Positions 22,119 to 55,132 of a stretch of 64,000 bases of DNA are shown piece after piece (the stretch's first letter is position 1; every line of letters starts with the position of its first letter). Source of the DNA: Escherichia coli (GTDB lineage Bacteria; Pseudomonadota; Gammaproteobacteria; Enterobacterales; Enterobacteriaceae). The translations under genes and the position numbers were made by a program. Under the pieces are notes generated by a model. The model did no database searches and was not told where the DNA came from. It saw only the letters and a list, made by a program, of their open reading frames with translations. The stretch lies in assembly GCF_044324875.1 (NCBI RefSeq), contig NZ_CP172185.1, one strand, 5' to 3'.

Positions 22119-23089
22119 ATGAATATGGAAGAAATTGTGGCCCTTAGTGTAAAGCATAACGTCTCGGATCTACACCTGTGCAGCGCCTGGCCCGCACGAT
22201 GGCGCATTCGCGGGCGAATGGAAGCTGCGCCGTTTGATGCGCCGGACGTCGAAGAGCTACTGCGGGAGTGGCTGGATGACGATCAGCGGGCAATATTGCT
22301 GGAGAATGGTCAGTTGGATTTTGCTGTGTCGCTGGCGGAAAACCAGCGGTTGCGTGGCAGTGCGTTCGCGCAACGGCAAGGTATTTCTCTGGCATTACGG
22401 TTGTTACCTTCGCACTGTCCACTGCTCGAACAGCTTGGTGCGCCACCGGTATTGCCGGAATTACTCAAGAGCGAGAATGGCCTGATTCTGGTGACGGGGG
22501 CGACGGGGAGCGGCAAATCTACCACGCTGGCGGCGATGGTTGGCTATCTCAATCAACATGCCGATGCGCATATTCTGACGCTGGAAGATCCTGTTGAATA
22601 TCTCTATGCCAGCCAGCGATGTTTGATCCAGCAGCGGGAAATTGGTTTGCACTGTATGACGTTCGCATCGGGATTGCGGGCCGCATTGCGGGAAGATCCC
22701 GATGTGATTTTGCTCGGAGAACTGCGTGACAGCGAGACAATCCGTCTGGCGCTGACGGCAGCAGAAACCGGACACCAACTTTACATACGCGTGGTGCGGC
22801 GCAGGCAGTTGAGCGACTGGTGGATTCATTTCCAGCGCAGGAAAAAGATCCCGTGCGTAATCAACTGGCAGGTAGTTTACGGGCGGTGTTGTCACAAAAG
22901 CTGGAAGTGGATAAACAGGAAGGACGCGTGGCGCTGTTTGAATTGCTGGTTAACACACCCGCGGTGGGGAATTTGATTCGCGAAGGGAAAACCCACCAGT
23001 TACCGCATGTTATTCAAACCGGGCAGCAGGTGGGGATGTTAACGTTTCAGCAGAGTTATCAGCAGCGGGTGGGGGAAGGACGTTTGTGA
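22119..23089 (+). pseudogene. yggR: PilT-like type IV pilus retraction ATPase YggR, disrupted by a frameshift near 22776-22780
   Basis: N-terminal reading frame (Walker A GATGSGKST) runs into non-PilT sequence after TGH; the PilT C-terminus (LHTRGAAQAVERLVDSFPAQEKD...) continues in another frame from about 22781. Confidence 0.7.
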
Positions 23090-23120
23090 GGCTAAAGTGA
23101 TTGATTAGCTTCGTAAATAT

Positions 23121-23179
23121 GCCTGATGCGCTACGCTTATCAGGCTTACAAATGTAGTCATTCACGCCGCATCCGGCAA
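23121..23179. repeat. REP element
   Basis: GCCTGATGCGCTACGCTTATCAGGC and CGCCGCATCCGGCA units. Confidence 0.5.
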
Positions 23180-23203
23180 TAAGGAGCGATGACGTAAATC
23201 GCC

Positions 23204-23620
23204 TTAATATCCCTGCTCGAAATAACTTTCGAGAATGATAACCGCAGAGGCAGAGTCAACTTTGCCTTTGTTGAGCGCCCGATAGCCGCCCTGTTCAAAC
23301 AGACCGGAACGGGCTTCCACAGTGCTAAGACGCTCGTCATGGAGCTTTACTTCAACACCGAAACGACCATGAATACGGTTGGCAAATTTACGCGCTCTGG
23401 CGGTTAACGGCTGTTCGGTGCCATCCATATTCAGCGGCAAACCAACGATGATTTCGTCCGGCTGCCACTCTTTCAGTAAACGTTCGATGAGATTCCAGTC
23501 CGGCGTACCGTCCTGTGCTTTAATTGCAGGCAATGGGCGAGCGGTGCCGGTAATGCGTTGGCCGACCGCTACACCAATGCTTTTGGTACCGAAGTCGAAG
23601 GCGAGTAAGGTTCCACTCAT
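23204..23620 (-). CDS. ruvX: Holliday-junction resolvase-like nuclease RuvX (YqgF)
   Basis: [20 protein letters not shown]; matches YqgF (138 aa). Confidence 0.9.
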
Positions 23621-51760: not shown

Positions 51761-51852
51761 GCGCTATCTGATGGAAAAATAAAACAGAGGCGCTAAGCTT
51801 GCCTCCAGAGGTCCTGAATTTTAGGCAAGTCAATTAACACGGAGAGACTAAC

Positions 51853-52593
51853 GTGAAGTTCAAAGTTATCGCCCTGGCGGCATTAATGGGTATTAGCGGG
51901 ATGGCAGCGCAGGCTAACGAATTGCCGGATGGACCGCATATTGTCACCTCCGGTACGGCAAGCGTGGATGCGGTGCCAGACATTGCCACTCTTGCGATTG
52001 AAGTCAACGTGGCCGCGAAGGATGCCGCTACTGCCAAGAAACAGGCGGATGAGCGCGTCGCACAATACATTTCCTTCCTTGAACTCAATCAGATCGCGAA
52101 AAAAGATATCAGCTCAGCGAACTTACGCACCCAGCCAGATTATGATTATCAGGATGGTAAAAGTATCCTGAAAGGCTACCGTGCTGTGAGAACGGTGGAA
52201 GTCACGCTCCGTCAGTTAGACAAACTGAATTCCTTGCTGGACGGCGCGCTGAAGGCGGGTCTTAACGAAATTCGTTCTGTGTCGCTGGGCGTGGCGCAGC
52301 CGGATGCCTATAAAGACAAAGCGCGTAAGGCAGCGATTGATAACGCGATTCATCAGGCGCAGGAACTGGCGAACGGCTTTCATCGTAAACTGGGGCCGGT
52401 ATATAGCGTGCGCTACCATGTTTCCAACTATCAGCCCAGCCCAATGGTGCGGATGATGAAAGCCGATGCCGCGCCGGTGTCCGCCCAGGAAACTTACGAG
52501 CAGGCCGCTATTCAGTTTGATGATCAGGTCGATGTGGTCTTCCAGTTAGAACCTGTGGATCAACAACCCGCTAAAACACCTGCCGCACAATAA
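51853..52593 (+). CDS. yggE: Periplasmic SIMPL/DUF541 protein YggE
   Basis: 246-aa ORF with signal peptide; matches YggE. Confidence 0.9.
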   Translation: MKFKVIALAALMGISGMAAQANELPDGPHIVTSGTASVDAVPDIATLAIEVNVAAKDAATAKKQADERVAQYISFLELNQIAKKDISSANLRTQPDYDYQDGKSILKGYRAVRTVEVTLRQLDKLNSLLDGALKAGLNEIRSVSLGVAQPDAYKDKARKAAIDNAIHQAQELANGFHRKLGPVYSVRYHVSNYQPSPMVRMMKADAAPVSAQETYEQAAIQFDDQVDVVFQLEPVDQQPAKTPAAQ

Positions 52594-52760
52594 TACTTGT
52601 AGCCCGACGTATTGGTCGGGCTAATGCCTTTACCCGATATTGCCTCCTTTTTCTGTAATTTTCTGTAAAACCATGACGTAATCACCTATCTTTGCTCGCG
52701 GTTTCATCAAGGATAGGCTGACTGAAACGGTTAAGCGGACAAGGATGCGGGGGAGCGGGG

Positions 52761-53657
52761 ATGGACATTTTTATTTCGAAAAAGATGCGCAATTTCATTT
52801 TATTAGCGCAAACCAATAATATTGCCCGGGCGGCAGAAAAAATCCATATGACGGCTTCGCCATTTGGCAAAAGCATTGCCGCGCTGGAAGAACAAATTGG
52901 CTATACGCTATTTACCCGCAAAGATAATAATATCAGCCTCAATAAAGCCGGGCAGGAACTGTATCAAAAACTGTTCCCGGTTTATCAACGACTTTCTGCG
53001 ATTGATAATGAAATCCATAACTCAGGACGTCGTTCACGAGAAATTGTGATAGGCATAGATAATACTTATCCGACCATTATTTTTGATCAGTTGATTAGTC
53101 TCGGAGATAAGTACGAAGGCGTGACCGCCCAGCCAGTTGAGTTCAGCGAAAACGGCGTTATCGATAATCTTTTTGACCGTCAGTTAGATTTTATTATCTC
53201 CCCACAGCATGTATCTGCACGAGTTCAGGAACTGGAAAATCTGACTATCAGTGAACTACCACCGCTGCGATTGGGCTTTCTCGTTTCTCGCCGTTATGAA
53301 GAGCGTCAAGAGCAAGAGCTGCTTCAGGAGCTGCCCTGGCTACAAATGCGCTTTCAGAACCGGGCCAACTTCGAAGCAATGATTGATGCGAATATGCGAC
53401 CTTGTGGGATCAATCCAACCATTATTTATCGTCCCTACAGTTTTATGGCCAAAATCAGCGCCGTGGAGCGCGGACATTTTCTGACGGTGATCCCGCATTT
53501 TGCCTGGCGACTGGTGAATCCGGCAACGCTGAAATATTTTGATGCACCGCACAGGCCGATGTATATGCAGGAATATCTTTATTCAATCAGAAATCATCGT
53601 TATACCGCCACGATGCTTCAGCATATTGCTGAAGATCGTGACGGGACGAGTCATTAA
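52761..53657 (+). CDS. ygfI: LysR-family transcriptional regulator YgfI
   Basis: 298-aa ORF with N-terminal HTH (NNIARAAEKIHMTASPFGKSI). Confidence 0.9.
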   Translation: MDIFISKKMRNFILLAQTNNIARAAEKIHMTASPFGKSIAALEEQIGYTLFTRKDNNISLNKAGQELYQKLFPVYQRLSAIDNEIHNSGRRSREIVIGIDNTYPTIIFDQLISLGDKYEGVTAQPVEFSENGVIDNLFDRQLDFIISPQHVSARVQELENLTISELPPLRLGFLVSRRYEERQEQELLQELPWLQMRFQNRANFEAMIDANMRPCGINPTIIYRPYSFMAKISAVERGHFLTVIPHFAWRLVNPATLKYFDAPHRPMYMQEYLYSIRNHRYTATMLQHIAEDRDGTSH

Positions 53658-55132
53658 CCCAGCATCGAGCCGGTTGCAATTAAATTACGGTGTAAATCGA
53701 AGACGTGGCTAAGATCGTGGTGAATATGTCCGCCGGGCGCATTTTCCAGATAGCGATGCAGATAATCCCGATACATAGGATGTGCACAATTATCAATGAT
53801 AGTGCGGGCGCGTTGAAGCGGGGAAAGACCACGCAGATCGGCGATCCCTTGTTCGGTGATGATCACTTTGACGCTGTGTTCGCTGTGATCAACATGGCTG
53901 CACATTGGCACGACGGTTGAGATCTTGCCTTCTTTAGCAATCGACGGGGCCATAAAGATCGACAGATACGCGTTGCGTTCAAAATCGCCGCTGCCACCGA
54001 TGCCGTTCATCAGATCGACCCCGGCTACGTGCGTTGAGTTGGCATGCCCGTAAATATCAAACTCCAGGCCGACGTTCAGAGCGATGACGCCCAGACGACG
54101 GATGATTTCCGGGTTATTGGAAATCTCCTGCGGACGCAACACAATGCGGCTGGCAAAGTAATCCATATTGTCGTAAATCTTGCGCAGGGAATCGGCCGAG
54201 ATAGTCAGGCTGGAGGCGCTGGCCCCGCTGATTTTGCCCGTTTCCAGTAAATGCACCACCGATTCCTGTAGCACTTCCGAATACATCATAAACGGAGGAA
54301 TTTCCGGATTTTCCCCCAGACGCGCCATTACCGCATTATTGATGTTGCCCACGCCACTTTGCAGCGGCAGAAATTCCGGCGGAATACGCCCATGCGCCAT
54401 TTCCTGCAACAAGAACGTGACCACGTTATCGGCAATCTGCTGGCACATGGGATTTTGCTTATCCAGCATATTACCGGCGTCGGGCAAGTTGGTTTCCACG
54501 ACGGCGACAATCTTTTTCGGATCGATTTGCACATAGCGGGTACCGACGCGATCCATTGCATGGAAGATCGACACGCTATTGCGCCGCGGTGGCGCGCCAG
54601 GAATCACAATATCTGCCAGTTCTGCAACGCGCGGATCGTGATAGTGATTGAGTTCAATGATCACTTTCTTCGCCCGCAGCAGCCAGGTCGGCGCATTACC
54701 GATCCCGCTGGTTAACCAGACTCGACCATCCGGTGCCAGTGCCGATGCTTCAATGACGGCAACATCAATTTCGCCGAAGAAACCGTAATTGACCATTTGC
54801 GCCACTTCGCTCAAATGCAGGTCAACGAAACTCACCGCGCCCTGATTGATCTTTTTACGTAAACCGGACGATGTTTGATATGGCGCACGCTAGGAAACAG
54901 CATCGGCGTCAGAAAGTACATCGTCAGCGGCGGCGCTGATTGACGCCCCCGTCAGCAGGCGAATTTGATACGGCTTTTTGGCCTCATGCTGTTCGTTAGC
55001 TCTGCGGGCAATCGCGGTGGGTAAGGCTTTCGGCGAACCCGCTGGGGTAAAGCCGCTAAATGCCACCATGTCGTTATGCTGGATAATTTCTGCCGCTTCA
55101 TCGGCGGTCATCCTTGTCCACTGAGTTTCCAT
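53654..55132 (-). pseudogene. scpC: Propionyl-CoA:succinate CoA-transferase ScpC (YgfH), interrupted by an in-frame TAG at 54890-54892
   Basis: 80 codons (METQWTRMTADEAAEII...DADAVS), then TAG, then the same frame continues RAPYQTSSGLRKKINQGAVSFVDLHL... for another 411 codons to the natural stop. Confidence 0.7.

Follow-up and report, generated by a model that had tools for sequence, protein, structure and literature searches.

Three conserved genes, yggR, argO and scpC, are disrupted within 33 kb of one Escherichia coli chromosome, and this locus raises the question of whether they mark a lineage undergoing gene decay, the errors of an assembly, or losses of an ordinary kind. The stretch analyzed here, a 64-kb region (64,000 nucleotides) of contig NZ_CP172185.1 from NCBI RefSeq assembly GCF_044324875.1, hereafter the window, keeps the gene order of the E. 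coli chromosome, beginning at a pheV-associated island and continuing with speC, yggR, metK, speA/B, tkt, epd-pgk-fbaA, argO, the sbm (scp) operon and serA as far as fau. An initial annotation had described a multi-base frameshift in yggR, a 1-bp frameshift in argO and a nonsense codon in scpC over a span, 22119-55132, that reaches exactly from the start of yggR to the start of scpC. Alignment to intact orthologues confirmed the lesions as real and independent of one another, each of a different mutational type. The lesions lie in the DNA and not in the assembly, their distribution is nested, and the scpC stop is recurrent. They are of an ordinary kind, namely clone-specific pseudogenes gathered one by one. 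We consider it likely that a natural E. coli clone gained three unrelated loss-of-function mutations, on three occasions, in conditionally dispensable genes. The three loci, as delimited by alignment to intact orthologues, are as follows.

22119..23089, plus strand: yggR pseudogene, PilT/PilU-family type IVa pilus ATPase
51126..51760, plus strand: argO pseudogene, LysE-family arginine exporter
53654..55132, minus strand: scpC (ygfH) pseudogene, propionyl-CoA:succinate CoA transferase

A total of 65 annotated reference genes mapped to the window and each was compared for disruption. Only yggR, argO and scpC were disrupted (3/65), while the 62 remaining genes had full-length open frames with 0-8 amino-acid differences, save yggC with 30. 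The genomes used for comparison were the 5,426 complete RefSeq E. coli genomes, a collection of which Shigella is not part, and independent data were taken from Logan, ENA and NCBI assemblies built from different runs. Every one of 5,425 complete genomes matched the window, none of them closely, the best identity being 98.1-99.0% overall and 99.0%, 98.9% and 98.6-98.8% for the segments 1-20 kb, 20-44 kb and 44-64 kb, respectively. Since no complete genome is close to it, the source lineage is poorly represented among them.

Pairwise alignment of yggR with intact orthologues revealed a 10-bp deletion of reference nucleotides 658-667 (CTGGTGCTGG), with its junction at window position 22775/22776. 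The frame is lost after residue 219, within the His-box motif GHLVLATLHT, part of which is itself deleted, and the 285-amino-acid product ends at 22976, so that 107 native residues are gone and the reading frame stays intact across neither the His box nor the C-terminal domain. When the 10 bp were restored, the protein matched TIGR01420 at 466.6 bits (cutoff 319.1) over residues 2-325. The truncated form retains Walker A and Walker B, has lost the His box and the C-terminal third, and is very probably inactive. The exact 285-amino-acid protein is also encoded on independently assembled contigs of Logan runs SRR31072984 and SRR31073000, with 100% DNA identity to the window over 5-7 kb, and the deletion junction was found in 0 of the 5,426 complete genomes. 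Through the window's rare HemW variant we reached a sister assembly, GCA_029450875.1, in which 7,414 bp around yggR equal the window except for the 10 bp, with 0 single-nucleotide polymorphisms (SNPs) and an intact yggR. This identity on either side of an intact gene indicates that the deletion is very recent and confined to a sub-branch. None of the papers listed by a literature search for yggR names the gene.

The argO lesion is the deletion of one G, reference nucleotide 273, at window junction 51397/51398, which converts CAGCGATG to CAGCATG and involves no homopolymer. The uninterrupted open reading frame (ORF) of 211 codons is not present, and two ORFs of 91 and 120 codons stand in its place, sharing an ATGA overlap that the deletion created.

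51126-51401, plus strand: argO ORF1, 91 amino acids (residues 1-91), ending at TGA
51398-51760, plus strand: argO ORF2, 120 amino acids, beginning at native Met92

Restored in silico, ArgO matched NF006801, the ArgO equivalog model, at 428 bits (cutoff 298) over residues 1-211 of 211. The 91-amino-acid fragment was present in 57 index blocks, among them NCBI GCA_002467655.1 (100% DNA identity over 6.3 kb), and the frameshift was present in at least five further Logan runs that were 99.96-99.98% identical to the window. The deletion junction occurred in 0 of the 5,419 complete genomes matching at the site, and a scan that took one genome from each GTDB species did not find it either.

In scpC, a G to A change at nucleotide 242 (window 54891) converts TGG to TAG (W81*; stop codon 54890-54892), leaving ORFs of 80 and 393 amino acids and a product that ends at residue 80 of 492. 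The protein restored in silico matched TIGR03458, the YgfH subfamily, at 754.7 bits (cutoff 658.7), while the window allele is interrupted at codon 81. The same lesion is annotated by RefSeq as an 'internal stop' in E. coli FORC_042, and the 80-amino-acid fragment was present in 290 index blocks. The stop falls in a recognizable sequence context.

54890..54894, minus strand: mutated Dcm site, ancestral CCTGG (CCWGG), now CCTAG on the coding strand

On the opposite strand this is a C to T change at the inner C of CCAGG, and CCTGG to CCTAG is the change expected from deamination of 5-methylcytosine. We infer that Dcm methylation was the mutational cause of W81*, through a deamination that would have escaped very-short-patch (Vsr) repair (for the biology of Dcm methylation and this repair, see PMC2715241). 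The same change has arisen repeatedly across E. coli, as the haplotypes on which the stop is found show. A comparison of 12 TAG-bearing and 27 TGG-bearing scpC sequences showed the TAG stop spread over many haplotypes, on at least 5-7 backgrounds. One TAG sequence (L009) equals three TGG sequences (L046-48) at all 1,478 other sites, a second (L013) equals a TGG sequence (L045) at every scpC site but 242, and a third (L008) has 4 differences from a TGG haplotype and 15 from the nearest other TAG haplotype. Because TAG carriers are identical to TGG haplotypes at all other sites, these data imply that W81* is polyphyletic, with at least 5-7 independent origins. A single origin of W81* spread by descent was considered and rejected in the haplotype analysis.

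Other tryptophan codons of scpC were examined as a control, in which the counts depend also on clonal expansion. W150 is the sole other tryptophan codon of the gene in a Dcm context, and natural stops were found there too (L053-L057), some TAG and some TGA. At W139, the one non-Dcm tryptophan codon checked, there were no stops, and all three 'truncated' products were cut by contig ends.

A similar case was found in the neighboring gene srsR, which is intact in the window and is a frequent pseudogene elsewhere.

52761-53657: srsR/ygfI, intact

Internal stops in srsR were present in 3 of 13 sampled genomes, described below (L029 36470-37366; L026 37707-38603; L064 32461-33357). The stop W193* is a TGG to TAG change in CCCTGGCT, a Dcm site (CCTGG to CCTAG), and occurs in O55:H7 and in the unrelated isolate 30224_1#291, in which the scp operon is deleted. 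An 80-mer with this stop, in its O55:H7/O157:H7 version, was present in at least 319 complete genomes, and the other srsR stops were S92* and Q185*. Dcm-site 5-methylcytosine is a classic source of amber hotspots in lacI. As in those laboratory hotspots, the scpC G to A change at CCWGG makes TAG and recurs independently, and srsR W193* has the same signature; unlike them, the scpC stop is seen in natural populations and not in a laboratory reporter.

The scpC gene is ygfH, the last gene of the cobalamin-dependent sbm-ygfD-ygfG-ygfH ('sleeping beauty mutase') operon, which is normally silent (PMC3850637). The stop would be tolerated because this B12-dependent operon is normally silent, and selection on it would be weak. 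The other operon genes in the window are the following.

55156-55941, minus strand: scpB, intact
55952-56947, minus strand: meaB, intact
56940-59084, minus strand: scpA, intact

Here ygfH alone has been struck, whereas many other E. coli lack the whole operon. The scpC site was missing in 1,117 of the 5,426 complete genomes, with about 79% still matching, and most of the scp operon was deleted in 2 of the 13 sampled genomes. In these two, the operon has left behind fused scpC and scpA remnants (L026 38600-39655; L027 37725-38780).

The argO frameshift and the scpC stop occurred together in every clone member recovered, and in each checked carrier the 393-amino-acid C-terminal ScpC fragment adjoins the frameshifted argO. 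Clone members differ from each other by 0-2 SNPs per 5.5 kb. The argO deletion would have arisen once and, like the scpC stop, is fixed in every clone member found, and the yggR deletion is the youngest of the three, limited to a sub-branch. The lesions can serve as nested clone markers, with the scpC stop plus the argO frameshift defining the clone and the 10-bp yggR deletion the sub-branch. No close relative was found in which argO or scpC is still intact, carriers of the identical intact ArgO or ScpC protein being just 98-99% identical in DNA. The reading of the lesions as draft-assembly errors, one of two offered by the initial annotation, was refuted by their recovery in independent assemblies and runs. 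Its argument against a single systematic sequencing artefact held, as identical truncated products and 100%-identical DNA were present in other assemblies and runs. A further possibility that it had named, fixed ancestral variants shared across the phylogroup, proved wrong, since the argO and yggR lesions are in no complete genome. We infer loss of function and weak selection for yggR, argO and scpC alike.

It remains to ask whether three such lesions in one window are unusual. E. coli chromosomes carry 45-95 pseudogenes each, about 1.5% of genes (Touchon et al. 2009, PMC2617782). At that rate about 1.0 pseudogene is expected per 65 genes, the probability of three or more is about 0.08, and about six 64-kb windows with at least three pseudogenes are expected per genome. 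As a control we counted the pseudogene events that RefSeq annotates over the same ~40 kb in 13 genomes, 12 of them spread over the similarity ranking and the other being A10, the best match to the window; two of these loci are incomplete, as A10 ends at srsR, short of the scp operon, and EH2252 stops short of yggR. The events per genome were 0, 0, 0, 0, 2, 2, 1, 1, 0, 0, 0, 1 and 0 (mean 0.54, maximum 2), and were made up of the three srsR internal stops, a glpX truncation, a frameshift in yqgD and the two cases of a largely deleted scp operon. Against these 13 genomes the probability of three or more is about 0.02, before correction for the post-hoc choice of region. The initial annotation's statement that there are more lesions than expected therefore stands to the extent that the number is marginally above expectation (P about 0.08, or about 0.02 against the 13 genomes), but the excess is not of a different order.

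A first competing explanation is that gene decay has begun to accelerate in the lineage, because of host restriction, small population size or prolonged laboratory passage, and that the three lesions sample a genome-wide excess. The excess over the sampled genomes is what would be expected of such a lineage, as are the additional srsR frameshift in one clone member, the Q139L substitution that one sub-branch has acquired in its dead argO (see below), and the divergence of the lineage and its poor representation among complete genomes. We nevertheless regard this explanation as improbable. Sixty-two of the 65 genes are intact, and ordinary E. coli have similar lesions nearby, namely the srsR stops and the scp-operon deletion. 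No insertion sequence (IS) element was found in the 64-kb window, which aligned collinearly to IS-free references with no insertion. The ratio of nonsynonymous to synonymous substitution rates (dN/dS) was 0.039 over 53 intact genes compared with their nearest references, a value that measures mostly old divergence rather than the recent branch. The literature rate makes three lesions in a window unremarkable at about 0.08, and the ages of the lesions are very different, hence there was no burst. The clone is present in dozens of public assemblies, of surveillance type and from metagenomes, and these are independent, which makes an origin by laboratory passage unlikely. Local support for the host-restricted or laboratory-passaged lineage proposed in the initial annotation was thus little, and the local evidence for lineage-wide gene decay is weak.

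The comparison with Shigella points the same way. Each of the genes scpA, argK, scpB, scpC, ygfI, yggD, yggF, cmtA, cmtB, yggM, speC and yqgA of this region has decayed in one or more of five Shigella strains (PMC3218036), so that the region as a whole is decay-prone there, but in the window all of these except scpC are intact. Unlike the convergent decay of Shigella, the window has no IS element, argO and yggR are off the Shigella list, and three genes are affected and not hundreds. That the source is itself a Shigella or an EIEC strain was judged unlikely, given the lack of IS elements and the intact state of genes that Shigella has lost. The resemblance is closer to the ordinary unitary pseudogenes of E. 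coli (PMC2617782), which likewise consist of single small lesions in conserved non-essential genes, are strain- or clone-specific, and have neighbors still under strong purifying selection. The present case differs from these in having three lesions within 33 kb, and in that the argO and yggR lesions are shared with no complete genome. Most likely the cluster arose by coincidence and falls in the upper part of the normal range, rather than being a sign of genome-wide decay.

Several observations weigh against the account of three unrelated losses in a natural clone. Three events exceed the maximum of two in any of the 13 sampled genomes, and no yggR or argO lesion was present in those 13, so that these genes are not habitual casualties. 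One clone member (L019, Logan SRR31121307) has an extra C in srsR at window position 52813, giving a product of 269 amino acids in place of 298, which is either a further clone pseudogene or an assembly error of that run. The accession numbers of the two runs with the yggR deletion are adjacent, and they may come from one project or strain. With regard to the proposed Dcm cause, W150 is also a Dcm site and has been struck far less often than W81, TGA, found as the stop in some W150 carriers, is no 5-methylcytosine-type change, and dcm and vsr lie outside the window. A modestly raised decay rate in the clone is therefore conceivable.

A second alternative, which we judge unlikely to about the same degree as accelerated decay, is that the losses were adaptive, the recurrent W81* reflecting repeated selection against the sbm pathway with the hotspot secondary. 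The 5-7 or more independent origins, the 290 index blocks holding the 80-amino-acid product, the deletion of the whole scp operon in about 20% of genomes, and the far more frequent stops at W81 than at the Dcm-site codon W150 would all agree with selection of this kind. Selection, however, would yield many different inactivating lesions and not one nucleotide change, and the change seen fits the known signature of 5-methylcytosine deamination exactly. The operon is reported to be silent, leaving little activity to select against. Finally, about 79% of genomes match the scpC site, and scpC was annotated as intact in 10 unbiased sampled genomes with an undeleted scp operon.

Less probable still is that W81* arose once and was spread by short-tract homologous recombination. 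Recombination is frequent in E. coli, and the window is itself mosaic: identity to a single reference varies from gene to gene between 93.9% and 100%, the usual picture left by recombination. Extremely short tracts would be needed to move the stop, since in L013 a flanking difference (site 249) lies only 7 nt from it and in L009 those at sites 180 and 267 lie 25-62 nt away, and two W81* carriers are identical to wild-type haplotypes over the rest of the gene. Repeated mutation at the Dcm site is the reading that we retain for scpC.

For argO there is a slim chance that the frameshift is not a null allele, the two halves being co-translated by termination-reinitiation and assembled as a two-piece exporter. 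The idea is conceivable because the deletion cuts between the two repeats of a 3+3 transporter, each of three transmembrane segments (TMS), and leaves an ATGA stop/start overlap. Residue 92 is the start of a hydrophilic stretch, 88-113, and in the LysE superfamily, which has two 3-TMS repeats, this stretch corresponds to their separation (PMC4608589). If true, split ArgO would recreate the ancestral half-size state of the LysE family. The points against a two-piece ArgO are that no Shine-Dalgarno sequence precedes ORF2, that there is no slippery site, and that Q139L hints at relaxed constraint. This Q139L substitution is a derived A to T change at window position 51540, in the C-terminal half of argO, and is common to three clone members (L018, L021 and L022). 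Its occurrence in an already frameshifted argO is a single observation, consistent with relaxed constraint after inactivation. Programmed ribosomal frameshifting or recoding of argO was rejected, as a TAA closes the -1 frame 9 nt before the ATG of ORF2, and a slippery site was ruled out, the AAA ACA GCA interval having no X_XXY_YYZ or Z_ZZN motif. Loss of ArgO, which remains the preferred reading of this lesion, should cause canavanine hypersensitivity (PMC8498466). The regulator of argO lies within the window.

59287..60180, minus strand: argP, LysR-type regulator of argO, intact by comparison with reference genes

The regulatory link between argP and argO is taken from a reference cited within PMC8498466.

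That any of the lesions is a mistake of sequencing or assembly in a draft genome is hardly credible: a single-base frameshift in a conserved gene is a classic error signature (PMC2617782), but the argO deletion lies outside any homopolymer, all three lesions are present in independent Logan, ENA and NCBI assemblies at 99.96-100% identity, and the 62 other genes are without any frameshift.

The remaining features of the window concern its mosaic composition. One segment stood out in its low similarity to the complete genomes.

33000-44800: speB, loiP, tkt, a prohibitin-family gene, cmtBA, yggP, glpX, fumE and yggC

Best identity in this segment was just 98.1%, SMS-3-5 being the top match, and it appears to be a rare or imported haplotype. 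Within it, cmtB has 93.9% identity to strain A10 with 8 amino-acid changes, and yggC is 87% identical to the A10 allele. A five-gene ECF-transporter/PPC cluster (~3.1 kb) that A10, SMS-3-5 and many other genomes have between yggC and epd is absent from the window (44881-45166), as it is from several sampled genomes, e.g., NBRC 3301 and IMT16316. Upstream of argO the window contains the following genes.

49050-49925: mscS, 291 amino acids here and 286 in genomes without the TRAP-gene insertion
49967-51010: orphan TRAP-type substrate-binding-protein gene between mscS and argO, without adjacent permease genes, 100% identical to A10

At the same mscS-argO spot, some genomes (L033 and L035) have an additional 309-amino-acid ORF. 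A short repeat and an integrative island complete the list.

47462-47586 and 60522-60647: ~126-bp repeat, two copies in inverted orientation
1-3790: integrative island beside tRNA-Phe, 99.8-100% identical to strain Br_112_kylling
838-2367: TraI-domain gene of the island, which also holds the end of a UvrD-helicase-domain gene
2410-3510: tyrosine integrase of the island
3715-3790, minus strand: tRNA-Phe

The ~126-bp repeat, which we take to resemble an ERIC/IRU element, probably explains why the 44-64 kb query had 35 matches in the median E. coli genome. Short-read Logan contigs, as projected from their coordinates, end at or near its copies.

Taken alone, the finding is of little weight: the assembly is sound, and three clone-specific pseudogenes have been documented in it. 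Its wider interest lies in the recurrent stops. The codons scpC W81, scpC W150 and srsR W193 provide natural-population cases of predictable, recurrent nonsense at CC-TGG tryptophan codons, which suggests that mutational hotspots drive part of pseudogene formation in E. coli. Without a check of the haplotypes on which they occur, stops of this kind should not be taken as a sign of shared ancestry or of lineage decay.

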